Assembly: GCA_017453485.1 (NCBI GenBank)
Contig: JAFTEW010000056.1
Location: 5,141 to 69,140 of the forward strand
Direction of reading: 5' to 3'
From: Alphaproteobacteria bacterium
GTDB lineage: Bacteria; Pseudomonadota; Alphaproteobacteria; CAAHEQ01; UBA3637
DNA length: 64,000 nt
Under the pieces are notes generated by a model. The model worked only from the letters and a program-made list of their open reading frames with translations, was not told the origin of the DNA and did no database searches. The translations under genes were made by a program, and so were the position numbers. Every line of letters begins with the position of its first letter. Position 1 is the first letter of the stretch. Below, one piece after another: positions 3,735-44,378 of this stretch.

Positions 3735-3742
3735 TCTCTCCC

Positions 3743-6257: not shown

Positions 6258-6311
6258 AAACTCCTTTATTCTGATACCTTACTTTATTTTATCGCATAAA
6301 ACAAGTCTTTT

Positions 6312-10500: not shown

Positions 10501-10725
10501 CTTTAAATCCAAGTCCTGCTCTAACACCCGTTGCTGACCGATAATTACAGAACGCATCCGAACACCATTCACAACCTCGTTCGCCATGATCCGATCCAAC
10601 GAATAACGATATCCCCATAACGCCGTCATCGTTATAATCCCCATAATCGCCAGAACGCCCAATATCTCCGTCATCGTCCGACCGGCTTGCGAGAACAATA
10701 TACTCTTCAAATTTGTATTCGCCAT
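7600..10725 (-). CDS. Giant (~1040 aa) cysteine-rich surface protein with type IV prepilin-like N-terminus (minor-pilin/adhesin candidate). Contains CC-doublet repeats and three 41-aa tandem repeats.
   Basis: Start reassigned to the ATG at 10725, which has an AGGAG RBS 7 nt upstream. The track ORF starts at 10833. The N-terminus MANTNLKSILFSQAG|RTMTEILGVLAIMGIITMTAL has G at -1, E at +5 and a hydrophobic helix, resembling TcpA/BfpA-type prepilins. The remainder has over 100 Cys in CCxxG, CxGxC and CAGVCGGTATKDCAGVCNGTAKDxGCGCGIAKTAEGCCPGQVK repeats. Confidence 0.6.
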   Translation of the reverse strand: MANTNLKSILFSQAGRTMTEILGVLAIMGIITMTALWGYRYSLDRIMANEVVNGVRMRSVIIGQQRVLEQDLDLKEFHPDSAEDKIYGRFKVEAFNDYPNDRPSPYGNAVVSNSGLNGEEYIQALEVYDIPYRVCEIVKKTEFPDPTYTAINGELYSWNYGERKYDVECIPDGDVIREGGMISSALDGEYHNVLSFVFHDSVGALCSYDSECHPLCCDNETGVCVRDYGKCHCDVCEERQANGTCKPKEKGVKVVSGADPSQDRCCDGKGGVGLCPPKKCEYNGKTYESGSTIEECGRCTNGNVLMGDWTDEECITCSAATGYKIVNKGQKGCDGVCGSNKTDDGCGCGIAKTAEGCCPGQVKDCAGVCGGTATKDCAGVCNGTAKDEGCGCGIAKTAEGCCPGQVKDCAGVCGGTATKDCAGVCNGTAKDDGCGCGIAKTAEGCCPGQVKDCAGVCGGSAKKDCAGVCNGTATNKTVTNCDGTTRTCCSADASCKDEEGCCPANRTYTEGGVTKCCDNVLSNGHCCASGQSYVGGKCCANGQVVGTTCCDTTKVYTENGTKKCCSGTVYANGTKCCASGKFDCKGVCDGTATNKSVTYKYLDGNCCKSKTETKCLAAGESGPASTCSADKTTTSETNNTCSTVATTTNLCTNVKTTSTTNKTDGTTIGQCGKCVNGSPVRGDQTTPTCQSCNTTTWNWQGHTGAVGACGKCNGQNYPNGAVVVDTSKVGECQTCNTSNWTLSNTVGCCSSGATKLFNERKQNNKTQTFAGCCADGKLLKGDDSTATKFRKKWKEGATGTTDYWSCCGDNQTVIGTASNTSSSCCLTSRVYKDGSTNKCCAKDLSQASDGTKVCCTGNNVNVGGGLCCASGKINVSGHCCNSGQGWADNKCCASNRIYTAGNTKKCCESPNEFINGICRGPATLQTCYASGTSHNDWSKAFCHTTNNTNSNYRIRISGSAVYGHTGYRLNGQIVSGQCESSSLGGTKVELAHRSHKKSAQILYLPNKDAGVLAPGGTFCYYMYTNHGGPSYNLTVTFTRED
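9290..9715 (-). repeat. 123-bp tandem direct repeat (about 3.4 copies, near-identical), in-frame within the pilin-like gene
   Basis: Read directly from the DNA. Shadow ORF 9239..9739 also shows three identical 41-aa units, PAQSF(L/V)A(E/V)PPQTPAQSLTCPGQHPSAVFAMPQPHPSSLAVPLHT. Confidence 0.85.
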
Positions 10726-10759
10726 AACAGAACTCCTCTGATTAAAACTCCTTCCTCTC

Positions 10760-10788
10760 AGTATATCCAGAATTATCCCTATTGTAAA
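10760..10788 (-). promoter_or_regulatory. Candidate sigma70 promoter of the pilin-like gene (TTTACA-N17-TATACT)
   Basis: On the minus strand, TTTACA then a 17-nt spacer then TATACT, about 35 nt upstream of the AGGAG/ATG at 10725. It is divergent from the tRNA-Glu promoter. Confidence 0.4.
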
Positions 10789-10934
10789 GCCATTTTTTCC
10801 ATTTTTTAAGCATTCCGCGGGTTTTAAGAACATGAATCAAAAAAACGCATTTATTATCAATGCATTGACACAAATTATAACCATCCGACAGAATGTTGCT
10901 TTTTCAAAAAAAATGAAAAAAACGTAAAAAAGAC

Positions 10935-11535: not shown

Positions 11536-12525
11536 TTAAGTAATTTCCGTGACAGCCCGAATGTTGCCGTCCCGATTGATTTGAACAACCTTAACCTTTT
11601 CCCGCATCTCTTTCAATGTCTTTTCCCGATCCATCCCCGGAGACGAGTGCAAAATTCGGGACAAAAAAGCCTGATACGCCTCAGTCGCCGAATCAGCGTG
11701 AATGGTTGCAAAACAGTTATCATGCCCCGTATTCATCAATTCCCAAAATGCCGCCGCATTGCTGGTAGAAATTTCCCCACACAAAATCGCATCCGGTGTA
11801 AACCGAACGGCTAAGTCAATCACCTTTTTATAATCAAATGCATTTGTCTGCTCGGTTCGGGACAAAACAACATGCACCCTGTTTTTATGGGGCACTTTTA
11901 ATTCACGAACGTCTTCCACCGTCACCACGCGCTTGTGTAAATCCAGCAACTGAATCATATTATTTAAAAATGTTGTCTTACCGGTTGCCGTTCCGCCGCT
12001 AACCAAAATATGATTGCCGCGCTTAATATACATAACCAACCGATCATAGGGATCATCCGGATCCTCAACACCCTTTAATTTATTGATCCGTTGCAGACGC
12101 TCTCCGGATTCTAAACCGAACTCCTTTAACTTAATCGGCTGATCCGGCCGCCAAACACGAATATCCATGGCCACACCACCCGTCAAATCATTATTGTCAT
12201 ACTGAACGTTATTACCGGCAATCCCCGTAAAACGATGGCCGCCGGGTAACTGAGTAAAAACAACCGGATTGCCGTTTACCGGATCAAAAGCCATATTATA
12301 GGAATTGGCAATAATATGTAATAAATTAACCAAGTACTCGCGTGTCAATTTTGGATCTTCATAGTAATGCCACGGGTGCGCATGCCGCCCCCTGAGCCGC
12401 AACCAAACACCACCGGGATTGTTGATGGCCATATCTTCCACATTATCTTGCGAATACCAATAGGCCAGGGGTCTTAATACGGACTCCAACACCCGATACA
12501 TATTTTCAACAGGTAAATCCGCCAT
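11536..12525 (-). CDS. virB11: VirB11-family type IV secretion ATPase
   Basis: Walker A VSGGTATGKTT. C-terminal block ILCGEISTSNAAAFWELMNTGHDNCFATIHADSA, as in VirB11/TrbB. Confidence 0.85.
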   Translation of the reverse strand: MADLPVENMYRVLESVLRPLAYWYSQDNVEDMAINNPGGVWLRLRGRHAHPWHYYEDPKLTREYLVNLLHIIANSYNMAFDPVNGNPVVFTQLPGGHRFTGIAGNNVQYDNNDLTGGVAMDIRVWRPDQPIKLKEFGLESGERLQRINKLKGVEDPDDPYDRLVMYIKRGNHILVSGGTATGKTTFLNNMIQLLDLHKRVVTVEDVRELKVPHKNRVHVVLSRTEQTNAFDYKKVIDLAVRFTPDAILCGEISTSNAAAFWELMNTGHDNCFATIHADSATEAYQAFLSRILHSSPGMDREKTLKEMREKVKVVQINRDGNIRAVTEIT

Positions 12526-12545: not shown

Positions 12546-15500
12546 CTAAAACAGTTTTTTATCGGTCTGTTGCTGCGTCCTGGGGAAAATCGGATTAACA
12601 ACCTGTCGATTAGTCCCCGTATTCGCCGTCGGCACAACCGCGACAGAAGGTGTAGAACCGGTCGCCGGGGCCGTTTCTGCGGCCGCCTGATTATCGGTAT
12701 CGGTCTCCCCGTTATAGATCGCTGCCCCACCGCCCATACCGGCCCGGTCATTATAGAGGACATCCCGATTGGTATAGATGGTTTCATAATCCGGATTATA
12801 GTATCCGACCCCATCATCCACAACAACAGACCCGCCACCGATATCGGTCGCAATACCACGCTCCGATGCTAATTCCGACATTTCACCGCTGCGAGGTTCA
12901 ATCCAATTCCCCTTGGAAGCCGGTCGGGCTTTCTTGGTATCTGCCCCATAGGCCGCTAAATAATCCTGCTCATCCTCAATTTCAGAACGGAGCCATAAAT
13001 CCGAGTTGGAAAATACCGTCAACCGTGTTCCGGCCGGCACAAAAACAACCTCGTCTATATTCATTGATTCATTTAATAATTGTTGGAAAATCTGACTCAT
13101 CGAATCAATGAAATTACTTCTGGCATCATTCGCTGCCTGTGCCCGAGAACTCATCACCTGATCACCGTTATCTTTATTCGTGATATCATCATTTGTCGCC
13201 GTCACAAACGCAATAGCCGATGTTAATGTTGATTGCAGAACCGGTCGCCCGTATTTCTTCAATAACTGCTCATCCAAATAGGCTGCTACACCGCCACGCC
13301 CCTGAGCATCACCAGAAGTTGCACTAAACGTAAAGGCCGAACCGTCCGGACGAATTAAGCGCGTCCAAGAAATTTCCATTTTATTGACATGTGAGCCACC
13401 GGCACCACCACCGCCTCCACCGGCACTACCGATCAGACGACTACCGGCAGGAATAATGATGCGCCGTCCCTGTTCGGCATAAATATGACGTTCAACAATA
13501 GCCGTCACAGGAACACTCGCATGACGAGAATCAATAGAATGTGCTAACACGGCCGGAATAGCTTTATCCTTTAAAATCATCCGTGACATATCAACCGGAT
13601 AACTGGACACGATTTTGGGTTCCCCCCAATCCAAATCCTGTTTTTTACGGGCACGAGCCAAAGTCCGCACATCCGGCAACATCCGCTCATAGGAACGAAT
13701 TTTGCTCTTCATCGCGGCCCGCCGTGTTGCCAACAGGCTATCCATAGCATCTTTATGTTCTTGGGGCACTTCAATCGGTTTTTTAATATCCGGACGACCC
13801 GTCGGACCACCAGTACCACTTAAAGCCCGATCATCCAGCGAATAGGGACGACCATCCTCACCCATATACCCGATGATATTACCGTCTTTATCAATTAAGG
13901 ATCCCTGTGGGGTCACATTAAACATCTCACCGCCCAAGAAGATACGGCGATCCCCAGACATTGCCCCCGGACCATCACCTAACATAAGAGCTGGTGCAAT
14001 CTTTTCCAAATCAATACCGAATAACTCAACATCCGAGATAACGTTATCATTCAAATCACGCACAATACCGTCATCCCCCAGTTTTCCTTTTGTTGTACCA
14101 TCAAAACCGACAATATCGCCGTTATCTAAAATCAATCCGATGAAATTACCGTCCGGATCACGAACAACCCGAATATCACTGACTTCATTTCCATTCGGAT
14201 CTACCAACTTATCATCATCTGTCAAGGTGGCAATTTTCCGACGTGTTTTGGGATCAATAATATCTCCGTTCGGGAGAACTTGAAATTGTTCATTCCCTTT
14301 CGGGTCTTTAAACATTCCGTTTCGCCCGAAACTGCCCCGGATATTACCCCGACTGTCAAACATCAATTCTTCATCCGGTGTCACAACCCGACAAATAATT
14401 TCGCCTTCTTGGTTAATAATGCTACCCTTGCCATCACCGATAACTTTACCAACAATTTTTCCGGCACCATCTACCACAATACCATTATGCTTAATTCGAC
14501 CGCAAGCCCCCCCGTTCGGGTCAATGGCTAAGCCCCGTTCCACAACGTGTCCGACAGCATCACCACTACCATTAACGACCGTCCCGTCATTTCGGGCACA
14601 ACCCATGACGATACCATTTACGTCAACGACCGTTGAATCCGGAAGTGTTCGTCCCAAATAATCACCTGAAATGGATGCAACCAACCCGTTTTGTGCTGCC
14701 CGACCAATTCGATTTTCGGCACCATCCACAGCCCACTTATCCGGCGTAACCCGACCAACGGCATTTCCTTGACCGTTAATAACTTGACCGTTGAATGAGA
14801 CTTGCCCTAATACTTTGCATTCATTAACAACCAATTGTTCCGGGACAAGACCACCTAAAATCCGATACTTATGCGTCCCTTTAACAGCACCGTTTACGGC
14901 AATTTGGCCAACTTCTTCACCGGCATAAGAAACAACCTTACCTTCACCATCCAACATACCCAAAACCTGACCGTCATGACCGGTGGCCGGATTAAAGGAC
15001 AAGACCATTCCGTCAATCGGTAAATCCTTCCCCAGGACCGATCCGTCATCCAATTCCCGATAAACTTTTTTATCTGCGGCATCTACAATATCACCCGTCA
15101 CGGTTGTCCGCCCCATAACTTGATTGCGATAACTGAATGGCAATCCTTGCTTGATGACATGGCCGACATACGGCATTGTTGAATACATTTGACGATCCGA
15201 CAATCCAACGGCACTTCCATCCGACAAGATACGTCCCATCAAAAGCCCTTCTTTTCCGGAAATCGTTCCATCCAAGGCAATCACACCGATATCATATCCG
15301 TCATCATTGACAACTTGCCCAACAGGTAAAGCACCTCCGGCCCAAATTGTATCCGGTGTCAAAGCCGATCCATACGGCATATATTCAGCTAATTTATGAC
15401 CGTCTTTACCTAAAATTTCAACAGTTCCCGAACTTCGGCCAATCACAACACCGTTGCGATCAATAAATGTTGCCGGTGATAATATGCCACCAATCAATTG

Positions 15501-18500
15501 ACCTTGCGAATCATACACAGCACCGCTACCTGTCCCAACGGCCGTTCCAGACTCTTGACCATCCGTTAAAATCTGCCCTGTCGGCAACGGAATCCCCATC
15601 AAGCCCAATTTTGTCCCGATCGGCAATCCAACCGGCGATAACCCGGCGACAACCTTTTTAGTCAAATCAACAACCAAACCGTTTGCCGTTAAATTGCCCA
15701 GGGGCTTATTATTATTGACAACCATGACGATACCGTCTGCACCGGCCATGCCTGATAATCGACCGTTAACATTATCTTTAACAGCTAATGATTTTTGCAT
15801 CAATCGGCCGACGATTCGCCCATCTTGAACAGCGTAGGTTTGATTGGTCACAGAAGCCACCTTATCACCACGACCGTTCACAACCTGCCCTTTTCCATCT
15901 ACAAGTCCCATAAATCCGGTCTTATCCGCCATGACCAATGTGCCAAGCGGGATATAGGCCCCCAGGACACTGCCGTCTGTATGAACAACCTGACCATCCA
16001 GCGTCACATGTCCGATAACATTTTGACCATCCTCCACAGCCCCATCAAACCGAGTCCAACCGATAAAGCCCCCATCGGCATTAACAGCCACACCGGGTTG
16101 CAACAATTGACCAACAATACCATCCTTGTTGTTGAAAACATAAGTATAACCGTTCATTAATCCGATATTCTGCCCGTTAGCAGTCAAAACCTGGCCATTC
16201 GTCGATACGGCCGTCAGATAACTTCCGTTTTCGGATACAACGATTCCCCGCGGAACCAGCGTTCCCAACACTTGATTATCAGCATTTAAAGCAACACCCG
16301 TCACCGAAACTGTCCCGACGGCATTTCCGGATTTGTCGTTGATACCGCCCTTAAAGTTAGCCCAACCGATTAACTGTCCAGTCGAATCAACATACGGTCC
16401 TATCCTCAACAACCGCCCGGAAATATTCTCCCGTTCACTATAAATTGTGCCAAACGGAGAAGCCACCCCGATTTGTCGACCACGGGCATCGTTAATTTTA
16501 CCCTGATAAGTCAATGCTCCCAACAATCCGTCAGCTCCAATCGGTAATGAGATATCCGGAAAAATACCGCCCAAAACCCGACCATCATTTGAAATCGCCA
16601 GTCCGTTTCCTAAAACATGTCCGATAACTGTCTGAGCCGCTGAAATGACTTCACCTTTACCGTTAACCGTCCCAACTTCACGACCGGTCACAGAAAAAAC
16701 TTTCCCCTGCGGAATGCGAACCCCGACCGTTTGCCCGGCCCGATTGACCACAGTGCCATCAGACTTAATTACACCTAAGGATTCGCCATCCTGATTCTGT
16801 AAGATACCATCAACGGTCATTGTTGCTAAATAGCCACCCTTCGGATCCATGAAAGCCGTCTTATCCGGGACCAACAACCCAATAACCGTGTTCTTTTCGG
16901 TATTCAAAACAGAATAATCCGGCAAAACATACCCGAACCGTTCACCGCTTGGTGTCAAGGCCATCCCTGTTTTTCTGGAATACCGCCCCAGGATAACACC
17001 GTCATGACCGAAAATAACACCATCCGGCGGCACAACAGCAATGATTTCATCTTTATCATTAACGACCCAGTTATTCGGTAGCAAACGACCGACTTTTTGG
17101 CCATCCGGCCCATAAACGTCCGTTCCAACAACCTTTAATCCGGTATCATCACCGTTTTCGTTTAGCACAGCCCCATCACCCGGTTCTGCCCCCAACAAAA
17201 TTCCGATAGGCGTTTTTCCATCCTGACCGGTGACTGTCCCATCACTGTTAACACACCCGATCACATTTCCGTCATTATCAATAACTTTACCATCCAAGCG
17301 TGTCCGACCGATAACTTTTCCGGTTGGACTCACAACCAACCCCATCGGAGCCACGAAACCGATGACTTCTTCTTGCTTATCAATAATTTGCTTTTCCGGA
17401 TTCATGCAACCGATAATCAACCCGTTTTCATCCATGACGTAACCTTCCGGCGTAATCAACCCTAAGAAACGACATCCGTCAGCAATAGCTGCTCCACGTG
17501 GCACAACCACACCGATGATACGGTGGTTAACATTAACAACATGACTGTCCGGACGCACCTGCCCGACCACTTCCACAGCTGCATTCATCACAACACCATT
17601 CGGATAAACGGACCCGATTCCCTGACATCCACGCCCCATGACATGACCGCGCGGCATAACGGCACCTAAAATTTTGGTCCCAGCAGATACGGTTCCGTCC
17701 GGATTAACACACCCGATAACAGACCCTTTACCATCAACCACTTTACCTTCCGAATTCACAAAACCGATGACATTACCTTTTTCGTTAATGACAAGCCCCA
17801 TCCGAATGGCCGTTCCCACATCAACACCATTCGCATCAACAACGGCACCATTCAACAGCGTATGACCAATTACCTGCGAGAAACCATCCTTAACCTGTCC
17901 GTTCGGCATAATCCGACCTAAGGCTTTACAAGCAGCCCCGACAGCGATCCCCCGAGGAATAACTCCCCCGATCAATTCTCCATCCGGATCAACAGCCAAC
18001 CCGTTCGGTTGGATGGAACCGATTGTCTGATTACTTTCATTTACAATAGAACCATTCGGCAAAATTCCACCGATAACTTGCCCTAACCAGTTGATAACCA
18101 ATCCCTGCGGTTCCAAATACCCGATCGGCTCACCGGCTAAATTAACAACCGTTCCGTCAACCAAGGGTCTGCCGATAACGGTCTTTGATCCGTCAACAAC
18201 CGTTCCTTCTTTGGTGACCACGCCCAAAACCCGTCCTTGTTCATTCAAAACAGAAACAACAGGAATAGCGCTTCCCAGCACCTTTAAGGAAGAATCCACA
18301 ATCGTGTCATCACCCACCAACCGACCGACAGCTTTCCCATCCGCATCCGTCACATCACCGGTTTTAGAGATTGTCCCCATCATTTTGTTGTTGATATCAA
18401 TCGGAATTCTTTCCGGCTCAACGATACCGACAAAGTGATCATCTTTATCAACCAACAAATTGCCTTTTACCTTGTATGTCTCACCACCGATTTCGACCTC

Positions 18501-19172
18501 ATTTTTATCGTTGACCGTTCCGGACTCACCATTGAATAAAGACGCTTCCCGTTGCCGCTCGGCATCTTTATCTTTACATGGTGTTTCACAGATAACACAA
18601 TCCTTTGAATCGGTTGATTGCGCCTTTAACGGAATAGTTAATTCACTATCTGAAAAGACACCCGGATGATCCACACGCCACCGGACCAATAATGTGTTTT
18701 GAATCTGCCGTAAAGACAGCGGATTCCACATGACTTTAACTGTACAAGTTCCGTCTTTGGCAATCACTTTATTCGGCTCGCACGTCCCACCGAGGGTAAA
18801 ACCGTCCTGCTGTGTATCGGCCAAGTCCATTCCCATAAAGACAATAGGACTTTCCTTTGCCGTCATTGTAATAATTGCCTCGGCCTCGGATCCCAATACA
18901 ACACTGTCCATCGTGACGGAAGCCGGCTGAGCCTCTAACTGGCCATTACCGGTTCCAAATTCCGGCAGGTCTGCCCCACTCGCCCCGGCCAGCGGATCCA
19001 ATTCCGAGATACCGATCGGATTATCTTCTGCCACACCCCGACGACGACTGCCGCCATTCATCGTGCAATAGCCAACCAGCACCAGGATAATAATCCCCAG
19101 TCCCAATAACCAAAGAAAACGATTACTTCTTTTTGTATATTGCTCTGACGAGCTTACGCTTCTGTTAGCCAT
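12546..19172 (-). CDS. virB10: Giant VirB10 (2208 aa). N-terminal TM, ~1500-aa degenerate ~20-aa repeat module, conserved VirB10/TrbI C-terminal domain, plus a ~300-aa C-terminal tail.
   Basis: TM segment FLWLLGLGIIILVLVGYCTM. Repeats follow the pattern G.V(V/I).xxG.xIG.V.P.G.V. The C-terminal domain (AVLAHSIDSRHASVPVTAIVERHIYAEQGRRIIIPAGSRLIGS..ISWTRLIRPDGSAF) matches the VirB10 barrel/antenna region. Confidence 0.8.
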   Translation of the reverse strand: MANRSVSSSEQYTKRSNRFLWLLGLGIIILVLVGYCTMNGGSRRRGVAEDNPIGISELDPLAGASGADLPEFGTGNGQLEAQPASVTMDSVVLGSEAEAIITMTAKESPIVFMGMDLADTQQDGFTLGGTCEPNKVIAKDGTCTVKVMWNPLSLRQIQNTLLVRWRVDHPGVFSDSELTIPLKAQSTDSKDCVICETPCKDKDAERQREASLFNGESGTVNDKNEVEIGGETYKVKGNLLVDKDDHFVGIVEPERIPIDINNKMMGTISKTGDVTDADGKAVGRLVGDDTIVDSSLKVLGSAIPVVSVLNEQGRVLGVVTKEGTVVDGSKTVIGRPLVDGTVVNLAGEPIGYLEPQGLVINWLGQVIGGILPNGSIVNESNQTIGSIQPNGLAVDPDGELIGGVIPRGIAVGAACKALGRIMPNGQVKDGFSQVIGHTLLNGAVVDANGVDVGTAIRMGLVINEKGNVIGFVNSEGKVVDGKGSVIGCVNPDGTVSAGTKILGAVMPRGHVMGRGCQGIGSVYPNGVVMNAAVEVVGQVRPDSHVVNVNHRIIGVVVPRGAAIADGCRFLGLITPEGYVMDENGLIIGCMNPEKQIIDKQEEVIGFVAPMGLVVSPTGKVIGRTRLDGKVIDNDGNVIGCVNSDGTVTGQDGKTPIGILLGAEPGDGAVLNENGDDTGLKVVGTDVYGPDGQKVGRLLPNNWVVNDKDEIIAVVPPDGVIFGHDGVILGRYSRKTGMALTPSGERFGYVLPDYSVLNTEKNTVIGLLVPDKTAFMDPKGGYLATMTVDGILQNQDGESLGVIKSDGTVVNRAGQTVGVRIPQGKVFSVTGREVGTVNGKGEVISAAQTVIGHVLGNGLAISNDGRVLGGIFPDISLPIGADGLLGALTYQGKINDARGRQIGVASPFGTIYSERENISGRLLRIGPYVDSTGQLIGWANFKGGINDKSGNAVGTVSVTGVALNADNQVLGTLVPRGIVVSENGSYLTAVSTNGQVLTANGQNIGLMNGYTYVFNNKDGIVGQLLQPGVAVNADGGFIGWTRFDGAVEDGQNVIGHVTLDGQVVHTDGSVLGAYIPLGTLVMADKTGFMGLVDGKGQVVNGRGDKVASVTNQTYAVQDGRIVGRLMQKSLAVKDNVNGRLSGMAGADGIVMVVNNNKPLGNLTANGLVVDLTKKVVAGLSPVGLPIGTKLGLMGIPLPTGQILTDGQESGTAVGTGSGAVYDSQGQLIGGILSPATFIDRNGVVIGRSSGTVEILGKDGHKLAEYMPYGSALTPDTIWAGGALPVGQVVNDDGYDIGVIALDGTISGKEGLLMGRILSDGSAVGLSDRQMYSTMPYVGHVIKQGLPFSYRNQVMGRTTVTGDIVDAADKKVYRELDDGSVLGKDLPIDGMVLSFNPATGHDGQVLGMLDGEGKVVSYAGEEVGQIAVNGAVKGTHKYRILGGLVPEQLVVNECKVLGQVSFNGQVINGQGNAVGRVTPDKWAVDGAENRIGRAAQNGLVASISGDYLGRTLPDSTVVDVNGIVMGCARNDGTVVNGSGDAVGHVVERGLAIDPNGGACGRIKHNGIVVDGAGKIVGKVIGDGKGSIINQEGEIICRVVTPDEELMFDSRGNIRGSFGRNGMFKDPKGNEQFQVLPNGDIIDPKTRRKIATLTDDDKLVDPNGNEVSDIRVVRDPDGNFIGLILDNGDIVGFDGTTKGKLGDDGIVRDLNDNVISDVELFGIDLEKIAPALMLGDGPGAMSGDRRIFLGGEMFNVTPQGSLIDKDGNIIGYMGEDGRPYSLDDRALSGTGGPTGRPDIKKPIEVPQEHKDAMDSLLATRRAAMKSKIRSYERMLPDVRTLARARKKQDLDWGEPKIVSSYPVDMSRMILKDKAIPAVLAHSIDSRHASVPVTAIVERHIYAEQGRRIIIPAGSRLIGSAGGGGGGAGGSHVNKMEISWTRLIRPDGSAFTFSATSGDAQGRGGVAAYLDEQLLKKYGRPVLQSTLTSAIAFVTATNDDITNKDNGDQVMSSRAQAANDARSNFIDSMSQIFQQLLNESMNIDEVVFVPAGTRLTVFSNSDLWLRSEIEDEQDYLAAYGADTKKARPASKGNWIEPRSGEMSELASERGIATDIGGGSVVVDDGVGYYNPDYETIYTNRDVLYNDRAGMGGGAAIYNGETDTDNQAAAETAPATGSTPSVAVVPTANTGTNRQVVNPIFPRTQQQTDKKLF

Positions 19173-19205: not shown

Positions 19206-21074
19206 TTATTGAATCCGAACAACCGAGCACGAGAATCCCCGACGACCGAGTTTTCGACACAAAGTATCACCCGCTTTAATACTTTTCACCGGACCGACAC
19301 GAAGGCGGAACAATTCCCGAACATCTCCATCAGCCGTTGCATCAATGGAATAATACGGTTCATATCCTTTCAACAAATCTTCGTTTTTCCCGTAAATATT
19401 ATCCCATTCGGATTCCAAAGCAGCAATATTCGGATTTGCCCCCAACTCAACGGCTATTGATTCCGTGGTCGTTGTTGTCACTCGACGATTCCGAACGCCG
19501 GCAGAAACTGGTTTTACCGATGCATCCTGATATCCCGCCGACATCGGAGAAACCGCCGTATTACCCGACAAAGTAATATCGCCCATCACATTATCGATTC
19601 CGGCACGAGCAGCCTGTGACTGCAATACAGCCGGCGGAATTGTCTGCATCGGCGCCATTTGATCGCCCGCCACAGCCTGATAAGCATTACCGTTTGTCGC
19701 TCCGTGTTGCGGCTGCTGATCACAGTATTCATATTCACCATCCGGGCAACGACCGGCATCACAACACCCACGCCCGTTTCCGCGACCATCAGCATCCGAA
19801 CCGTAGCCGGCTCCGCCGTTAATCGGTTCACCATCCATATTCAGAGCCGTTTGCTTACGTGCCAACAGAGCATCAATGGACATAGCACCATCACCGGCAC
19901 CGTAGTTATCCGGTAGATGTGGCGCGTTCCACCGTTCCGGACGGGCACTATCCGCACTATAATCCGTCCATTCCAAGCCGGTTGCCGGATCACGACGCAG
20001 TTTCAGGCAAATCAATTTCTTCCCATTTCTCAGGACCATATCACCGATTCCTTCCACAACGATTAAACGACTATTCGGCCCCCGCGTTCTGAACCCGACA
20101 GGCACTTCGGAATCTTCAACAATTAAGTTGACAATCGGCCGTTGTGTCATCGTTAAGGCCTTCGGACCCAAGTCAATATAGGTAAAAATATTATCCCGCC
20201 ATACATTATCCGGAGCGATATCAATATCACTCGGATTCGGCAGATACATATCAATATCAAAGCGGAAAGATTCCGGATCAACCGGAATGGATGCCAACCA
20301 ATCTTTCGGTCCCGTTGAAGCCGTATTCAGCCCAATTTGCGGATTTTGAGCGCCACCCGGCACCAAATTACTTTGTCCGGCCCAACCCGGTGCAGAAGAA
20401 AAGCCACTGGCCATTGCCGAAGACATCGTCACCGAAGCACCGTTATAACTGCCGAGCGATCCGCCGGCACTAACCGGTGTATAACGTTGTCCGACCAACA
20501 CATCCACAACGGATTGTGTGATTTTATCGGTATTATAGGTTTCACTCCGCAAATAGAACACATACCGATTACCAGAGCGACCAAACACAATCATATTGCA
20601 ATCAACACCGATATAGGAGGGATCGGCATACAGAAGGAGAGAATTCGGCGCCGCAATTTCACCACCAAAGGATTCCGGAGAACCGATATGGACTTTTTCA
20701 ATCAATTCCCATGTCGGCAGGTTAATCAAGGTCATCATCCCTTCACGCAGACGAATCGGCAACACAACATCCGGAGACCAGTTATAGCGTGAATACCCTG
20801 GTTTCAATTGTCCTTCTCCCATATGAGACAGCGGATCATTCCATGCTTTTTGTTGCATGCCCAAGGAGTGAATATACCCCAAATTCATTTGGTCAAACTC
20901 ACCGGTTGTCTGCGCAATCGCGTCTTCCAACTGAGCCGCTTCCGTATCGGTCGGCAACATTTGTTGAGCCATTGCCCCCGTTGCCATCAAAACAGATACG
21001 GCAACAGCACCTAACCAATTCATTTTGTGCATATTTTTTTTCGTCATTATTGATTTCTCCTTCATATTTGACAT
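19206..21074 (-). CDS. virB9: VirB9 with C-terminal extension ending in a SPOR-like peptidoglycan-binding domain
   Basis: Signal peptide. VirB9 N- and C-domains (e.g. ESFRFDIDMYLPNP...RPIVNLIVEDSEVPVGFRTRGPNSRLIVVEG). The terminal ELFRLRVGPVKSIKAGDTLCRKLGRRGFSCSVVRIQ aligns with the FtsN/DedD SPOR consensus (..RVxIGPVK....A..L..KL...G.....V). Confidence 0.75.
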   Translation of the reverse strand: MSNMKEKSIMTKKNMHKMNWLGAVAVSVLMATGAMAQQMLPTDTEAAQLEDAIAQTTGEFDQMNLGYIHSLGMQQKAWNDPLSHMGEGQLKPGYSRYNWSPDVVLPIRLREGMMTLINLPTWELIEKVHIGSPESFGGEIAAPNSLLLYADPSYIGVDCNMIVFGRSGNRYVFYLRSETYNTDKITQSVVDVLVGQRYTPVSAGGSLGSYNGASVTMSSAMASGFSSAPGWAGQSNLVPGGAQNPQIGLNTASTGPKDWLASIPVDPESFRFDIDMYLPNPSDIDIAPDNVWRDNIFTYIDLGPKALTMTQRPIVNLIVEDSEVPVGFRTRGPNSRLIVVEGIGDMVLRNGKKLICLKLRRDPATGLEWTDYSADSARPERWNAPHLPDNYGAGDGAMSIDALLARKQTALNMDGEPINGGAGYGSDADGRGNGRGCCDAGRCPDGEYEYCDQQPQHGATNGNAYQAVAGDQMAPMQTIPPAVLQSQAARAGIDNVMGDITLSGNTAVSPMSAGYQDASVKPVSAGVRNRRVTTTTTESIAVELGANPNIAALESEWDNIYGKNEDLLKGYEPYYSIDATADGDVRELFRLRVGPVKSIKAGDTLCRKLGRRGFSCSVVRIQ

Positions 21075-21146: not shown

Positions 21147-21860
21147 TTACTCTTTCTCCTTATCACGCTTAATCGTTGTGGACAACACCCGCTGTGCATA
21201 CCCGTCAACCTGGAATCCCAACGGATTTTGAAGCCTTTGTTCCCAGGTAATCCCACTACGCAACTGACCGAAACGAATACGCATTTCCACGAGCCAGGTT
21301 GTTTTCTCGGGCTCAGGCATACTCCGACTCCGGTCAATCAAAGTCACTTCTGCATTCCAAATGATTTGATTGTCATTCCTGGGAATCTTGCGAACGTTAT
21401 TCAATTGCACATCCCGGGTCAGTCCTTCTTCCTCGGCCATCTTAATCAAACCTTTGGCATAATCGTTCAAAAACGTAATATAGACAGCATCACTACTCAT
21501 CCATTGGATACTGCCTTCCTGTTCCCAACGGCGTTTTAATTCGGCGACATCCGATCCGATCCCCAACCGGGCCAATAAGTATTCCCGCACAAAAGATTCT
21601 TGAAGCGCTTTTGATTGTAGCACTTTCGGGTTTGGCCGATTAATCCGCACAATCTGCTTGTCTTTATCCTGAGTCCAAATATAAAACGGTTGCACACGCA
21701 CCAGCGGACGTAGCGAATCAATCGCCGACAACAAAATCAAATCCGCAATCAACGTCACCACACACACCAGTCCGAAGACCCGTGCCATCCACAGATAACT
21801 TCTTTCTTTAACGGCTTCTTCCGAAATATCGTTTTGCCCGTTCAGGCCGGGAAGTTTCAT
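21147..21860 (-). CDS. virB8: VirB8 (paralog a)
   Basis: N-terminal TM helix. NTF2-like region ending with the VirB8 hallmark NPLGFQVDGY. Confidence 0.7.
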   Translation of the reverse strand: MKLPGLNGQNDISEEAVKERSYLWMARVFGLVCVVTLIADLILLSAIDSLRPLVRVQPFYIWTQDKDKQIVRINRPNPKVLQSKALQESFVREYLLARLGIGSDVAELKRRWEQEGSIQWMSSDAVYITFLNDYAKGLIKMAEEEGLTRDVQLNNVRKIPRNDNQIIWNAEVTLIDRSRSMPEPEKTTWLVEMRIRFGQLRSGITWEQRLQNPLGFQVDGYAQRVLSTTIKRDKEKE

Positions 21861-21880: not shown

Positions 21881-22057
21881 CTACGAGAACCATTCCGGTA
21901 AAGCCGGAGCCTTATCCAACTTTAAACACGCACAAGGAGATTTCTTCAATTCCGACCAATCAGGACCGATACCGACCGGTTCTTTTTCATAAATTGACCC
22001 GCAAGCCGCTAAGATCAAAGCACCAACAGCAAAAACAGTAAGTAAAATTTTCTTCAT
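21881..22057 (-). CDS. VirB7-like small lipoprotein (58 aa)
   Basis: Internal start MKKILLTVFAVGALILAACGS (lipobox LAAC). Size and position between two virB8 genes match the rvhB7 arrangement. Confidence 0.5.
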   Translation of the reverse strand: MKKILLTVFAVGALILAACGSIYEKEPVGIGPDWSELKKSPCACLKLDKAPALPEWFS

Positions 22058-22145: not shown

Positions 22146-22781
22146 CTATTTTTTTATTTCGCTTCCGCTATACCCTGTTTCATCATAGGAAACAACATAC
22201 ATGCCAAACGGGTTGGCGAAATCACGGGCAAAATTACGAAACGCCCGATTATAGCCGATTTTAACGGTTGCTCGCCGCGTTCCGCCGGGGATGACTTTCC
22301 CTTTATTATAACTGTATAATCTGAAATCAACCGTAAAAGTATTATCCCGCCGTGTCACATTCAAAATATCAACTGTTCGCGCTCCGTCATCGTTGGCGAT
22401 ATTTTCGGCATAATTCCCTTTACCGGCAATAAATTTATTGTAAATTGCCGGAGCAGACAACCGACCGACAGGCCCTCTTGGCCCATAGCGATAATCCAAT
22501 TCGGCCCGATCGGGAATGTAAAAATGCCTGTTTTCAATATAAAAGCGAACCATCATTTCATCAATCAAGCGCCGCTCTTGCGCATTTAAGGCATTGATAT
22601 TTGTTGCCTCAATCAGTTGTGGGAAAGTCATACTGTCCGGTGAAAACATCTGAGGGATAACTTTTACCTGTGGTGCCATATTCAATAAGGTTAAAACCAA
22701 CAAAATACACGCCGTCATCAATACAATCGATAACCCAATCCAAAATTTCAGAGAAACAGTTGATAACCTGATTGATTGCAT
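22146..22781 (-). CDS. virB8: VirB8 (paralog b)
   Basis: TM helix. C-terminal FANPFGMYVVSYDETGY matches the VirB8 NPLGFxVTSY motif. Confidence 0.6.
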   Translation of the reverse strand: MQSIRLSTVSLKFWIGLSIVLMTACILLVLTLLNMAPQVKVIPQMFSPDSMTFPQLIEATNINALNAQERRLIDEMMVRFYIENRHFYIPDRAELDYRYGPRGPVGRLSAPAIYNKFIAGKGNYAENIANDDGARTVDILNVTRRDNTFTVDFRLYSYNKGKVIPGGTRRATVKIGYNRAFRNFARDFANPFGMYVVSYDETGYSGSEIKK

Positions 22782-22786
22782 CCGAA

Positions 22787-24379
22787 CTAAACACCCCCGT
22801 TTAAACAGGTTTCGTCAATCGGTTGAGCCGCCGAAGCAGCCAGCATTTTTTCCAGTTCATCCCGCCCTTGCATCATAACGGCCGCGGCCTGTGTTTCTTT
22901 CATCATCTTGTCAACTTCGCCCGCATTGGCACCATTTAAGAAAACACGTCCTTCTTTATCCTTTTTCAATGCCGCTAATAAATTCTGATCCTGTTCATGC
23001 ATGGAAGCCGGCATCTGGGTTTGCAACTCCTCAAAAGCCTCTGGATTCATCTTCTTTAATTCCGCAATATCAGCAATATCTTCCAGTTTCAGACGAGATT
23101 CATGAACATCATCATCAGCAGTATCACGCCGATTCATCTCTAATTCTGCTTCATTTAACAAAGGCAGATACATCTGCTGTAATTGTTGTAAAACAGCGGC
23201 TTGTTGATCCAAATCCAATAAATCGACCGTATCCTTACTGCCGGGCAGAAATTGTTCCAATTGTTCTTTCAAACTGGATAACCGACTGTCCGCCTGTTCC
23301 AACACCAAACTTTCCAATCGACGCGTTGTATCTACCGTCTGGCTCATCGTATCGTAGGCTACCAGCCGATTGGTTTGTTTCTGACGTTTTGCACTCTCTT
23401 TCATGGTCAGTCCCTGGCTGAAATCCTGTGCCATTTCTCCGGTTGGATTAACATCTGCGAACCGACCTTCCGCATATTTTTTCCAGGGTTCAGGCATTAC
23501 GGGGTAAATCTGTTTTTCCGGAACTTCCGATTCAACATAAATCATCATTTCATTTTTTGGCGGTAGCGGCCGGGGTGCTATCGGCGGTTTTCGAAAAGAC
23601 GATGGCAAAGCCGCTGTTTTTGCCGGATTCTTAGCCGCCAGCAATGCTACATATTCCCGATGCGCTTTCTCTACATCTTCGGCTTTGGCGTAGTCATATT
23701 TTTCATCCCCGATTCGGGGGCGCATCTGCGGTGGCACCCCGAAGTAAGTATTCAATTTTGTATAGAAAGAATCCCACTCTTTATCAAATGTATATTTCTG
23801 GTCGGCCCACAAAGGAAAAGTCGTGTTTTCCTTTGTCTTCGGACGTTCCCCCCATTGATCCTGATTTTGATAAACATCAACCAAAATATCACGACCGACC
23901 CGCCACGGTGCAAATAATTCCGCAGCCATTTCCGGGGTCATTTCTCCATTTTCCATATAGCGTTTAAAAGCTTCACGATCCGCATCCGTTGCCTCGGTTG
24001 AGTTAATATAGATGCTTAATCCCTTTTCCCGATCGGCATAGGCTTCTTTCATCTTATTCCAAACCTCTTCGGGTTTTTCAAAAGACTCTTCCAATTTTTG
24101 AATACTGCATTTTTCCAGAGCAGCCAAACGATCTTCTTCTACCTGGCGCATGTGAACCGTTGTCAACAACTGATTCCGAATTTGGTCTAAATTCCGAATT
24201 TCAAACATCAGGTTATGGAGCGCCAAAGCTTTTTTTAAAGCCTTGCGCTCCACACCCGTCACTTTCATGATTTTCCCTTTATTTGTCGGTGTCACCGTAT
24301 CAAAAGAAAGATCAGCCCCCTGACATACACCGACCCCAATCACCAAGCCGGCTACTATTCCCGCAGCCCAGTATTTCAT
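22787..24379 (-). CDS. Secreted 530-aa protein of unknown function within the T4SS locus (Pro-rich segment, coiled-coil C-terminus)
   Basis: Signal peptide. No recognisable catalytic motif. 4-nt overlaps with both neighbours suggest co-translation with them. Confidence 0.5.
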   Translation of the reverse strand: MKYWAAGIVAGLVIGVGVCQGADLSFDTVTPTNKGKIMKVTGVERKALKKALALHNLMFEIRNLDQIRNQLLTTVHMRQVEEDRLAALEKCSIQKLEESFEKPEEVWNKMKEAYADREKGLSIYINSTEATDADREAFKRYMENGEMTPEMAAELFAPWRVGRDILVDVYQNQDQWGERPKTKENTTFPLWADQKYTFDKEWDSFYTKLNTYFGVPPQMRPRIGDEKYDYAKAEDVEKAHREYVALLAAKNPAKTAALPSSFRKPPIAPRPLPPKNEMMIYVESEVPEKQIYPVMPEPWKKYAEGRFADVNPTGEMAQDFSQGLTMKESAKRQKQTNRLVAYDTMSQTVDTTRRLESLVLEQADSRLSSLKEQLEQFLPGSKDTVDLLDLDQQAAVLQQLQQMYLPLLNEAELEMNRRDTADDDVHESRLKLEDIADIAELKKMNPEAFEELQTQMPASMHEQDQNLLAALKKDKEGRVFLNGANAGEVDKMMKETQAAAVMMQGRDELEKMLAASAAQPIDETCLNGGV

Positions 24380-25275
24380 TGTTGACCTTTCACATCGAGC
24401 GTATCCGATAGCGGAGTTGTCCCTTGCTCATACAATCCGGCTTTGGCCTGTAAACGCAGCCCCAAAACTTGCTGTTCCAAACTCAACAATTGATCATAAG
24501 CCAATCCATGATGAGCATACTGCCGTAATGTTTGGTTATAGTCATTTGTCTTTTCAACCGTTTTTTTACTATTTTGCGGATCCAAATCCTTTTTAGCATC
24601 AGACTCATCATATTTTGAGTCAACATCACCGACAACACTGCCGACTGTATCCGTCACGTTTTTACGCAACACAGCCGCCAAAGCCAACATACGAATAGCT
24701 TGTTCCTGTTCGGTATATTTCCGTTGTTGAAGATATGCCTCTTTTTCATTCATAGTTCCGGCAGACGACGTATAGTCTTTTTGTTGTTCTTGTGCCAATT
24801 CATAGGTCGTTTTACCGCCATCTTTGATGATTTCATCATCCTTCCCTTTGCCGACCATACCTTCACCGGCTTCCCCGGTAATACCACCGGTCTCAATTTC
24901 GATATTGGACAATTTAGCATCAACATCCTTCATCATGCCGTCTATTTTCTTTTTAGGGACAGATATTCTTTCCCGAATTTGTCCCTTTACTTCATTTTCC
25001 ACCTCAGTTCTGAGGCGAATAAATTCCTGTTCCGTTGCAACAATGGCATGAGTCGGAATACTGGTCACATCCAATACAGGCCAACGATCTTCGGTCACTT
25101 TTTCCACAAACCGTTTGATAGCGGCATATTTATTGTTATCTGCGGCAAACTTACCAACCACCTCACCACCGATATCGGCCTGTGCCATCACCCGACATCC
25201 GATACCACAAGATAAAGCAATACCCGCTAACAATGTATATTTTAACACTTTATTCATCATAGTCCCCCTCCTCAT
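24376..25275 (-). CDS. Secreted alpha-helical protein, VirB5/TrbJ-like paralog 1
   Basis: Signal peptide. K/E/Q-rich helical composition. C-terminal helix LLSLEQQVLGLRLQAKAG and tail ...KGQQ, shared with the next paralog. Confidence 0.4.
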   Translation of the reverse strand: MRRGTMMNKVLKYTLLAGIALSCGIGCRVMAQADIGGEVVGKFAADNNKYAAIKRFVEKVTEDRWPVLDVTSIPTHAIVATEQEFIRLRTEVENEVKGQIRERISVPKKKIDGMMKDVDAKLSNIEIETGGITGEAGEGMVGKGKDDEIIKDGGKTTYELAQEQQKDYTSSAGTMNEKEAYLQQRKYTEQEQAIRMLALAAVLRKNVTDTVGSVVGDVDSKYDESDAKKDLDPQNSKKTVEKTNDYNQTLRQYAHHGLAYDQLLSLEQQVLGLRLQAKAGLYEQGTTPLSDTLDVKGQQ

Positions 25276-25964
25276 TGTTGACCTTGACCGGGATCTTCAA
25301 TCCGTTGCGGATCCAGTCCTAACAGCATTTGAGCGGCCTCTAATTCCATCAGTTTTGCCTGTAAAATCACGTTCGCCCCTTCCAGTTCTACCATCGTTTT
25401 TTTCGTTTGAATCATCATATCAATTTGATGAATATTGCCGCCAGCCGTTGTTTCAGCATCCTTTAAAACACTTTGTTCTTGGGCGACACTATGACGAATA
25501 GCCGCACTTAACGACAAAATCTCTTTAGCTAACGATTCAACATACGCATACCGCCGCTGCATACTCTCATTTTTATGAGCCTCTGTCACCTTAGACAAAT
25601 CCGGATCAAAAAAGAATTTTTCCCGAATATATCTATCGGCATCTTCTGCATTTTCAAACGCCGGCAGATACTTATCCGACCCCATAGTCATAATGTTCGC
25701 ATCTTTCAAAAAAGCATAGGAAGAACCCTTCAACAAATCTTTTTCTTTAACCTGCTTTTTCCCTTCCCAAATTTTGATTTCTTCCTCTTTGGAATGCACC
25801 TTATGGTATTCGGAAATCAGGGATAACATCCGTTGCACCCCCTGAACGGCAAACTCGGCCGTCCGCACGGCATCATAGACAAGAAATGCCTGGGCCGTTG
25901 ATACAGACAACCCTAACCCTAACCCCAGGGTCGCACATAACAGTGTTCTTTTGAAATTCTTCAT
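25272..25964 (-). CDS. Secreted alpha-helical protein, VirB5/TrbJ-like paralog 2
   Basis: The mature N-terminus AFLVYDAVRTAEFAVQGVQ resembles the VirB5/TrbJ 'xIPVxD + coiled coil' start. C-terminal ...ILQAKLMELEAAQMLLG...GQGQQ. Confidence 0.45.
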   Translation of the reverse strand: MKNFKRTLLCATLGLGLGLSVSTAQAFLVYDAVRTAEFAVQGVQRMLSLISEYHKVHSKEEEIKIWEGKKQVKEKDLLKGSSYAFLKDANIMTMGSDKYLPAFENAEDADRYIREKFFFDPDLSKVTEAHKNESMQRRYAYVESLAKEILSLSAAIRHSVAQEQSVLKDAETTAGGNIHQIDMMIQTKKTMVELEGANVILQAKLMELEAAQMLLGLDPQRIEDPGQGQQ

Positions 25965-25975
25965 AAGCCGCCTCC

Positions 25976-26683
25976 TTAAATTTTGCTGCCGCTTTGGGCT
26001 GTTTTATCGGTTGTATAAACATCCCCCGCAATAATGTTGTCAATCGAGTTCAATTCAACAATCTTGGCCCGTAGCGCTGTTATTTCATTTGTTTTTTGCA
26101 GATGCTGTGCCTGTAATTTAGCCACACCCTTTAACATATTCAACACATCATCATTTTGTTCAATGACCTTTCCCATTGCGTCAATATCTTCCTTACCGGA
26201 TTTAGTTGCCAACGCCACAGCACGCTTACCCATAGCCACCGCTCGGGTTGCCGCATTAACCTGAATCTTGTTTTGATTTTCACGAACTGAGTTAATGTTA
26301 TTTTGGAAATCGTATTCTTGTTCCTTCCCGGCCACGGTATCACGTTTGACCAACATGACCTTAATAATTTCCTGGCGTAACTTTTCCATATCCGTACCAC
26401 CGGAACCGGTCCCATAGCCCCCATCACTTTTTCCAAAGTAATCACCGCCGTTCCATGTTTGGGTACCATCGGTCGGCTTACCGTATTTTTCCTGAACTTC
26501 ATAAAACTTACGGAGCGCTCTCTCCCGTAAAGAACCTTCCAGTTCTTTACCATCATGTTTCACGGAAACAATTTCACCGTTCACGATTTCAATCACGACA
26601 CCTTCATACCAACAGGCTACCGCCCCCTGTGCCCCCAGGATAATTGCACCGGCCAGCATCATTTTTAAAAATTTATTCACCAT
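25976..26683 (-). CDS. Secreted alpha-helical protein, paralog 3
   Basis: Signal peptide. Gly-rich loop. C-terminal amphipathic helix. Confidence 0.4.
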   Translation of the reverse strand: MVNKFLKMMLAGAIILGAQGAVACWYEGVVIEIVNGEIVSVKHDGKELEGSLRERALRKFYEVQEKYGKPTDGTQTWNGGDYFGKSDGGYGTGSGGTDMEKLRQEIIKVMLVKRDTVAGKEQEYDFQNNINSVRENQNKIQVNAATRAVAMGKRAVALATKSGKEDIDAMGKVIEQNDDVLNMLKGVAKLQAQHLQKTNEITALRAKIVELNSIDNIIAGDVYTTDKTAQSGSKI

Positions 26684-26695
26684 GATGTTTCCCTC

Positions 26696-43993: not shown

Positions 43994-44070
43994 GGGCCTG
44001 TAGCTCAGTTGGTTAGAGCTGTCCGCTCATAACGGATAGGTCGTGGGTTCAAGTCCTACCGGGCCCACCA
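43994..44070 (+). tRNA. tRNA-Met, elongator type (anticodon CAT). tRNA-Ile (lysidine) cannot be excluded.
   Basis: Cloverleaf with anticodon loop CTCATAA. G1–C72 pair, so not an initiator. Ends in CCA. Confidence 0.8.
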
Positions 44071-44078
44071 AGATTAAA

Positions 44079-44105
44079 AGCCACGCCTTTCGGGGTGGCT
44101 TTTTT
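44079..44105 (+). terminator. Intrinsic terminator after tRNA-Met
   Basis: AGCCACGCC tttc GGGGTGGCT followed by a T5 run. Confidence 0.6.
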
Positions 44106-44378
44106 CATATTTCGCAAGGCATTCGGCAGGTTCGATTATGAAGGGACAGAAAACTTCCGTCAATTCCGACATCAATTCATTCTGCGCTACCGCTTGAATT
44201 CATTGTGTCTCATTGCTTTGCGCATAAAAAATGTTCACTGGACATTTTTTATTTACGCAGTATCGAACTTTTGCATACTTTCCATTATAAAACAAGCACT
44301 TATCCACAGTTCAAGTCCTGTCAGGGCGTCAAATAAAATATTTTTAAATCCTAAACTTTTCCCGTTACATTATATTAA

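Follow-up and report, generated by a model that had tools for sequence, protein, structure and literature searches.

How type IV secretion systems (T4SSs) are placed and held in the peptidoglycan is only partly understood, and the known solutions are VirB1 and separate OmpA-like subunits (DotK and Dis1). VirB1 is a lytic transglycosylase which opens the peptidoglycan and does not tether the machine. The outer-membrane core complex of the T4SS is made of VirB7, VirB9 and VirB10, and in Legionella the subunits DotK and Dis1 of the T4SS outer-membrane complex have OmpA-like peptidoglycan-binding domains (PMC9302130). The rvh islet C of Rickettsia has a duplicated virB8 with virB7 between the copies, and virB1 and virB2-6 are located elsewhere in the genome (PMC2653234). 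Here we examined a stretch of 64,000 nucleotides from an alphaproteobacterial assembly (contig JAFTEW010000056.1, positions 5,141 to 69,140; hereafter the window), in which a virB9 gene (19206..21074, minus strand) encodes a VirB9 protein that ends in a SPOR domain. We propose, with a probability of roughly 0.6 and by analogy with characterised SPOR proteins, that the SPOR domain, which is fused to this VirB9 of an rvh-type T4SS via a disordered tether of ~90-165 residues, binds glycan and thereby anchors or positions the core complex.

The fusion had been suggested in a sequence-only reading of this stretch, and it was borne out by matches to both PF03524 and PF05036 and by the SPOR fold obtained with AlphaFold and Foldseek. 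Residues are numbered throughout on the 622-amino acid (aa) open reading frame (ORF). On the whole protein, PF05036 (SPOR) matched aa 570-620 with 20.2 bits, marginally under the cut-off of 21, while the isolated 88-aa tail scored 25.3 bits (E 2e-5), above the cut-off; the sequence-only reading had proposed such a scan for aa 540-622. The same profile was matched by each of the diverse non-redundant family tails (37/37), the best of them at 34.4 bits (E 2.8e-8), and three of the best-scoring tails (33-34 bits) align along profile positions 6-76. AlphaFold2 modelled the tail alignment with a predicted local distance difference test score (pLDDT) of 90.5 and a beta-alpha-beta-beta-alpha-beta topology, with strands at tail residues 5-13, 39-44, 54-62 and 83-87 and helices at 16-29 and 65-77; the SPOR fold recurred at pLDDT >90 within an otherwise poor full-length run. 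When the predicted tail was compared with the PDB by Foldseek, the top match was the SPOR domain of CwlC (1x60; E 6.9e-5, template modelling (TM) scores of 0.69/0.76), followed by that of RlpA (6i05/6i09; TM 0.70/0.78-0.79, root-mean-square deviation 2.1-2.2 Å), and generic ferredoxin-like folds had TM <=0.46. When the tail profile was run against the sequences of the PDB, 1x60 alone was detected, at E 0.16. The solved SPOR domains are too distant in sequence to be of use here, so we argue the SPOR identity from Pfam and the fold. Judged by sequence profile and predicted fold, the tail is confirmed as a genuine SPOR-family domain; both a SPOR match and a ribonucleoprotein (RNP)-like fold were found, which is the opposite of the outcome (no SPOR match and a non-RNP fold) that the sequence-only reading had named as fatal to it.

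The tail resembles the SPOR domains of RlpA (Pseudomonas aeruginosa), FtsN, DamX and DedD (Escherichia coli) and CwlC (Bacillus subtilis) in its size (~75-85 aa), in the same RNP-like fold and in its Pfam match. As with known SPOR domains, it is C-terminal, behind a disordered low-complexity linker, and has an L-x-R-x-R basic patch on strand beta3; a disordered linker followed by SPOR is the usual architecture of the family (PMC6895207). A Cys at the start of beta4 is shared with FtsN (C312), whereas the second invariant Cys, C606, is in helix alpha2 and not in beta1 as in FtsN (C252); a C606-C616 disulfide is possible. Those SPOR domains belong to divisome proteins or peptidoglycan hydrolases, unlike this tail, which sits on a secretion-system ring subunit. 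Conservation by region was calculated as the mean per column in an alignment of 36 relatives. It was 0.75 in the SPOR domain compared with 0.17-0.26 in the tether, which shows the tail to be under strong purifying selection relative to the tether; the VirB9 domains are likewise under purifying selection. The invariant SPOR residues are E543, L553, E554, W557, F589, R590, L591, R592, G594, C606, C616 and V618; R620 and the terminal Gln622 vary hardly at all, and the tail terminates in V-x-R-x-Q.

The ORF includes 9 probably untranslated N-terminal codons, has its stop codon at 19206-19208, and its C-terminal end reads ...ELFRLRVGPVKSIKAGDTLCRKLGRRGFSCSVVRIQ in the ORF list, in agreement with the sequence-only reading. 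The true start is probably the ATG of M10 (window 21047), giving 613 aa, because three lines agree on it: an AAGGAG Shine-Dalgarno sequence 8 nt upstream of M10, an identical database protein of 613 aa (P0001, named 'TrbG/VirB9 family' at NCBI) and the start point at M10 in every aligned homologue. All of the following parts are on the minus strand. The start and the Sec signal peptide MTKKNMHKMNWLGAVAVSVLMATGAMA (20967..21047, aa 10-36, conservation 0.45, no lipobox) were predicted by direct inspection of the sequence as MTKKNMHKMNWLGAVAVSVLMATGAMA/QQ, in keeping with the export of a VirB9. They are followed by the VirB9 N-terminal domain (20490..20966, aa 37-195, mean column conservation 0.90), a Gly/Ser-rich interdomain segment (20301..20489, aa 196-258, 0.68) and the VirB9 C-terminal domain (19956..20300, aa 259-373, 0.89). 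The low-complexity tether then covers 19461..19955 (aa 374-538), mostly at AlphaFold pLDDT <50, and the SPOR domain occupies 19209..19460 (aa 539-622, 84 aa).

The tether is ~165 aa long here and 88-166 aa in relatives, with many Ala, Gly, Asp and Pro residues. Its conservation is 0.26 at aa 374-471 and 0.17 at aa 499-538, and between these lies a conserved, clade-specific motif, QMAPMQTIPPAVLQSQAARAGIDNVMG (19581..19661, minus strand, aa 472-498, conservation 0.60), with the consensus MAPxxxIPxxVxxSxxAxxGI and a helix weakly predicted at aa 481-498. As the conserved VirB9 core stops at ~aa 373, the C-terminal extension is ~250-265 aa; the continuation claimed by the sequence-only reading is thus present but somewhat shorter than the ~270 aa it gave.

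The VirB9 part matched PF03524 (CagX/VirB9) at aa 95-357 with 44.8 bits (E 1.7e-11, cut-off 34.2, profile positions 4-195 of 198). The NCBIfam equivalog of P-type VirB9, TIGR02781, scored 28.2 bits relative to a cut-off of 217.7, and because this is far under the equivalog cut-off, the protein is best assigned to the VirB9 family as a member of a divergent lineage and no equivalog of the plasmid P-type VirB9. The full-length AlphaFold2 model had a mean pLDDT of 46, with values <50 over aa 49-393, where the VirB9 beta-sandwich domains are expected; the core was poorly modelled because the alignment was shallow and made of close relatives. Similar to A. tumefaciens VirB9, pKM101 TraO and Rickettsia RvhB9a, the protein has a Sec signal peptide and PF03524, and its gene lies in the order virB8-virB9-virB10-virB11. 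It differs from canonical VirB9/TraO and from the 247-aa RvhB9a in its ~250 extra C-terminal residues and its longer Gly/Ser interdomain segment.

We then searched for the distribution of the fusion. An initial protein search gave >100 full-length relatives that are 55-81% identical, with the tail in all but one truncated sequence. With one genome per GTDB species, 80 loci were obtained, all from uncultured Alphaproteobacteria (e.g. Acetobacter sp. CAG:977) sampled from the rumen and from human, rabbit and other guts. The canonical tail was identified in 77 of the 80; in the other three the tail has diverged (L073), the gene is split by an N-gap (L047) or it lies at a contig end (L067). The sequence-only reading had asked whether the tail is shared by the VirB9 orthologues of related genomes, and all intact orthologues from GTDB species have it (78/78). 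Against 1.84 billion representatives, the tail profile matched 553 proteins at E <=1e-3, and the VirB9-linked matches form at least 10 clusters at 50% identity.

A second large clade, with proteins of 484-529 aa, was detected in a search started from P0226, the most divergent of these proteins, and has the VirB9 core together with the tail in 120/120 proteins among the matches listed. The corresponding metagenome-assembled genomes are labelled 'Alphaproteobacteria bacterium' or 'Rickettsiales bacterium'. The islet of this clade contains virB8, virB9-SPOR and virB10 (830-854 aa) only, amid ribosomal, rpoBC and yidC genes, and its conserved tether motifs differ (PFLIADTASVMALAEANV following the C-terminal domain, ERxTAGSYLPQxNIPLI preceding SPOR). 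From its presence throughout two large clades in chromosomal settings, the fusion can be regarded as old, chromosomal and vertically maintained. Two second-clade loci also have peptidoglycan-related genes in the vicinity, which may be coincidental in both cases: a LysM + Peptidase_M23 gene of the amidase-activator kind ~4 kb from virB8-virB9 (L081, 4347-5642), and a Peptidase_S11 + SPOR carboxypeptidase ~9 kb from virB8-virB9 (L083, 20549-21539).

Beyond VirB9, the search also brought up a family of alphaproteobacterial proteins, 370-500 aa long, that contain two or three SPOR domains each (P0177, P0186, P0189, P0198, P0206, P0208, P0230 and P0240), with SPOR matches at 72-88 bits. In their N-terminal SPOR domain, the Glu in place of the usual Gln, the Trp of helix alpha1 and the Cys pair are as in the VirB9 tail. 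For example, P0189, a 'SPOR domain-containing protein' at NCBI, has the position-8 Glu, the alpha1 Trp and the alpha2/beta4 Cys pair. Unlike VirB9-SPOR, these proteins have no VirB9 domain and contain two or three repeats, and their beta3 reads R-[IV]-Q-A-G-P rather than F-R-L-R-V-G-P. By their sequences, they point to a wider 'Glu-type' SPOR subfamily.

The residues that contact glycan are known from RlpA-glycan crystal structures, in which the conserved Gln of beta1 (RlpA Q270, FtsN Q251) forms hydrogen bonds with the lactyl carboxylate of N-acetylmuramic acid (NAM) and the N-acetyl group of N-acetylglucosamine (PMC6895207). An Arg patch (RlpA R302, R309 and R311; FtsN R285) and a hydrophobic residue (RlpA L307, FtsN W283) also contact the glycan, and the remaining, i.e. 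most, RlpA contacts are made by backbone atoms, for which the fold matters and not the side chains (PMC6895207). In the VirB9 tail, SPOR profile position 8, which is normally the glycan-contacting Gln (FtsN Q251, RlpA Q270), is E543 (codon 19446..19448, minus strand), and the tail differs from known SPOR domains in this Glu, in having no Phe at position 12 and in its terminal V-x-R-x-Q-COOH. The register was taken from Pfam alignments, in which tail residue 7 corresponds to profile position 6 and FtsN SPOR residue 4 to profile position 3. Among distant VirB9-SPOR representatives, position 8 is Gln in P0152 and Asp in P0226, a number too small to reveal any covariation of position 8 with the Arg patch.

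The rest of the contact surface is closer to the known domains. The stretch L588-F-R590-L-R592 on strand beta3 (19299..19313, minus strand) matches RlpA L307/R309/R311 and FtsN R285, and both R590 and R592 are invariant, so that the basic patch of SPOR on the beta-sheet face is retained. In an hhalign comparison of the tail profile with the E. coli FtsN SPOR domain, R590 was paired with R285; this alignment covers the C-terminal half only, at a probability of 15% and with an FtsN sequence which scores 68 bits on Pfam SPOR, and it was used solely for the R590-R285 equivalence. A salt bridge between E543 and an Arg is possible. The position-8 Glu was also found in high-scoring non-VirB9 SPOR proteins of Alphaproteobacteria, e.g. 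P0189 (71.9 bits), and given such strong matches the position-8 Gln is characteristic of SPOR and yet no strict criterion of membership. Because strong multi-SPOR proteins share it, the Glu appears to mark a natural 'Glu-type' SPOR subfamily and not decay. With an invariant Glu in place of the canonical Gln, the tail probably departs from the 'denuded glycan' paradigm of FtsN and RlpA, either in its affinity or in the exact feature of the glycan that it recognises.

All T4SS genes of the window are on the minus strand, and housekeeping genes flank the islet, which gives it a chromosomal setting. Two virB8 genes, the second copy at 22146..22781 and the copy immediately upstream of virB9 at 21147..21860 (both Pfam VirB8), have between them an unannotated small lipoprotein gene (21881..22057) whose 58-aa product, with the lipobox LAAC, is a candidate VirB7; it reads MKKILLTVFAVGALILAAC/GSIYEKEPVGIGPDW...SPCAC... 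and is conserved in 71/78 related loci. The virB10 gene (12546..19172) encodes a giant protein of 2208 aa, with an N-terminal transmembrane segment, ~1,700 aa with at least 9 Pfam Bflower_2 (5-fold beta-flower) matches (E 1.9e-67) and a TrbI domain at aa 1866-2061. In almost every one of the 80 related loci, virB9 is followed by a gene for a VirB10 of 2,100-2,500 aa, and Rickettsia VirB10 is 481 aa (PMC2653234). The virB11 ATPase gene (11536..12525, T2SSE match) follows, and the order virB8/virB9/virB10/virB11 recurs in related loci. With two virB8 copies on either side of a small lipoprotein gene, an arrangement shared with Rickettsia islet C (PMC2653234), the islet has the layout of a chromosomal, Rickettsiales-like (rvh-type) T4SS, to which we assign it by gene content and order.

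Unlike canonical VirB9 loci, no virD4 is recognisable directly after virB11; the ORF at 7600-10833 (minus strand, 1077 aa) has no Pfam or NCBIfam match, and the same is true for seven consecutive ORFs of 230-530 aa upstream of virB8 (22787-29476, minus strand). These eight ORFs may encode lineage-specific T4SS components or effectors. The sequence-only reading had stated that no VirB1 is seen at the locus, and Pfam and motif scans agree with this for the window: no SLT/VirB1 domain was found in the scanned window ORFs, and no catalytic motif E-S...G-L-M-Q either there or, for 83 related loci, in the 10 kb around virB9. VirD4, VirB6 and VirB1 were not assigned by profile scans, and with the unmatched ORFs this is less than a full exclusion. 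As an argument about the genome the absence fails, because the rvh-type layout is scattered, with virB1 in a separate islet. The further suggestion of that reading, that the SPOR tail takes over a VirB1-type tethering role, needs correction, as VirB1 is a peptidoglycan-opening enzyme and no tether, so the tail is no like-for-like substitute. The tail and VirB1 have in common that both are T4SS components dealing with the peptidoglycan barrier; VirB1 cleaves glycan strands, whereas the SPOR tail, lacking a catalytic domain, is limited to binding.

In the anchoring mechanism which we favour, the protein would be exported by Sec, and its VirB9 domains would then join the VirB7-like lipoprotein and VirB10 in the outer-membrane core complex. 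Each VirB9 copy would contribute one SPOR domain hanging below the outer membrane, and the tether of ~90-165 residues would be long enough to let it reach the sacculus. The open beta-sheet face of SPOR would bind glycan strands through backbone contacts and through R590, R592 and probably R620, and this binding would anchor or position the T4SS in the cell wall. Any specificity of the VirB9 tail for denuded glycan we infer only by analogy. A precedent is the Legionella Dot/Icm system, where DotK and Dis1 also place a peptidoglycan-binding module within the T4SS outer-membrane complex (PMC9302130). Those are separate accessory subunits of a type IVB system, with an OmpA-like fold that binds the peptide stem, whereas the SPOR tail would be a glycan binder on the core ring protein of a type IVA/rvh-like system.

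Several observations weigh against glycan anchoring. The Gln is the most conserved of the SPOR ligand contacts, and it is Glu in 78/78 first-clade orthologues (GTDB species) and in 119/120 of the second-clade proteins listed. FtsN Q251E is a mutant with reduced septal localisation and reduced binding of denuded glycan (bioRxiv 10.1101/2024.05.13.594014), and a carboxylate at position 8 should repel the NAM lactyl carboxylate. Profile position 12 is without its usual Phe, being Asn547 here and H, N, S or G in relatives. On helix alpha1, which points to the side opposite the glycan face, the residues L553, E554 and W557 are invariant, and this is compatible with a protein partner. Moreover, the full-length model, at its mean pLDDT of 46, is too poor to place the VirB9 C-terminus in the complex.

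The same residues may point to a different use of the domain, namely a repurposed SPOR fold that does not bind peptidoglycan and docks instead on the VirB10 beta-flower repeats, VirB7, VirB8, neighbouring VirB9 tails or some other ligand. In addition to the invariant Glu at the contact Gln, the lost Phe of position 12 and the invariant residues of alpha1, the conserved C-terminal V-x-R-x-Q would fit such docking, as would the mean column identity of 74% in the tail, which is high for SPOR, a family typically at <20% pairwise (PMC6895207). However, the VirB9 domains are likewise highly conserved (0.89-0.90), so that this conservation is not special to the tail; the Arg patch of beta3 is strictly kept, and Glu-type SPOR domains also turn up in ordinary multi-SPOR envelope proteins with no link to a T4SS. 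A flexible tether of variable length is also better suited to reaching something distant and diffuse, like the sacculus, than to docking at one fixed site. We thus consider docking unlikely. A chance likeness, or a frameshift or assembly error which joined virB9 to a separate SPOR gene, could be read from the whole-protein Pfam score of 20.2 relative to 21 and from the PDB sequence search, with 1x60 only at E 0.16. It is extremely improbable in view of the single in-frame ORF in 78 species and >200 database proteins despite the variation in tether length, of the isolated tail and all relatives exceeding the SPOR cut-off, and of a confident predicted fold matching solved SPOR structures. A tail mis-fused from a separate gene, in particular, was ruled out by the same in-frame ORF in the GTDB-species loci and in the second clade.

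Glycan anchoring might also be given a more specific function, in which the SPOR tail is a targeting device that recruits VirB9 and the core assembly to amidase-denuded wall at the septum, new poles and remodelling zones. The machine would then be inserted where the wall is already opened, would end up polar and may need no dedicated VirB1. Targeting refines the anchoring explanation functionally and is not an exclusive alternative to it. Characterised SPOR domains bind denuded glycans and direct proteins to the septum (PMC6895207; bioRxiv 10.1101/2024.05.13.594014), and the VirB10 partner of ~2,200 aa implies a bulky periplasmic mass that must cross the wall. The lack of an SLT/VirB1 domain or catalytic motif in the window and, for 83 related loci, in the 10 kb around virB9 would also suit targeting, but is uninformative here, with the rvh-type virB1 sitting in a separate islet; and the Q-to-E change at position 8 is the same one that weakens the septal targeting of FtsN. 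Targeting is therefore a tentative proposal, and we rate it as rather unlikely, if worth keeping in mind. The fuller version, in which the VirB9 tail reads a mark of wall remodelling (denuded glycan or, in view of the Glu shared with other alphaproteobacterial SPOR proteins, a chemically distinct glycan feature), couples insertion of the large T4SS to septa and new poles and replaces the need for VirB1, we hold to be doubtful.

Envelope machines with peptidoglycan-binding modules are familiar, and what appears to be new here is SPOR on a T4SS core subunit. A literature search yielded no description of such a fusion, as far as the titles and abstract openings of most papers on VirB9 and peptidoglycan binding go. 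Some database entries have automatic PF05036 + PF03524 annotation, and the entry names seen read only 'TrbG/VirB9 family protein'. As an architecture, VirB9-SPOR is clean, testable and conserved widely, with an intriguing change in the ligand site, but it is no new principle. Next to VirB1 and the separate OmpA-like subunits, it would be a third solution, in which the core ring protein itself has a domain of a glycan-binding family fused to it, and this state is fixed in a large radiation of Alphaproteobacteria that are uncultured and for the most part associated with gut or rumen. As an 84-aa domain with one conspicuous Gln-to-Glu change, it offers a compact system for asking whether SPOR specificity includes classes other than 'denuded glycan', and it also bears on the question of whether the placement of a T4SS can be coupled to cell division. 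If the mark-reading version of targeting were true, this would be the first secretion-system core ring with a divisome-type targeting domain, and it would define a 'Glu-type' SPOR specificity class.

Other features of the window were also identified. Directly downstream of the T4SS islet is a cluster of type IVb-pilus-like genes (1349-7373, minus strand), which encode a weakly matching PilP-like protein (1349-2476), a PilO accessory protein (2415-3734), a secretin (3743-5389) and a TcpQ-domain protein (5373-6257), and which include one ORF with no assigned family (6312-7373). On the same strand, a single ORF of 1077 aa at 31592-34825 combines an LptF/LptG permease (aa 6-345) with the N-terminal and beta-barrel domains of LptD (aa 401-1012). 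The LptG and LptD parts are not separated by a stop codon, and the internal Met357 opens an apparent LptD signal peptide (MKRKGKRLFRFGALCLMVIFAGAVNGQA/AD); either lptG and lptD are fused or read through in frame, or a stop codon has been lost. A patch of low GC content (0.33 compared with ~0.45 elsewhere) covers 44001-46931 and contains an ORF of 850 aa for a UvrD-like or AAA_11-type helicase (44379-46931, minus strand), with a DNA methylase gene nearby (47730-48443). This patch may be a foreign or defence-related insertion.

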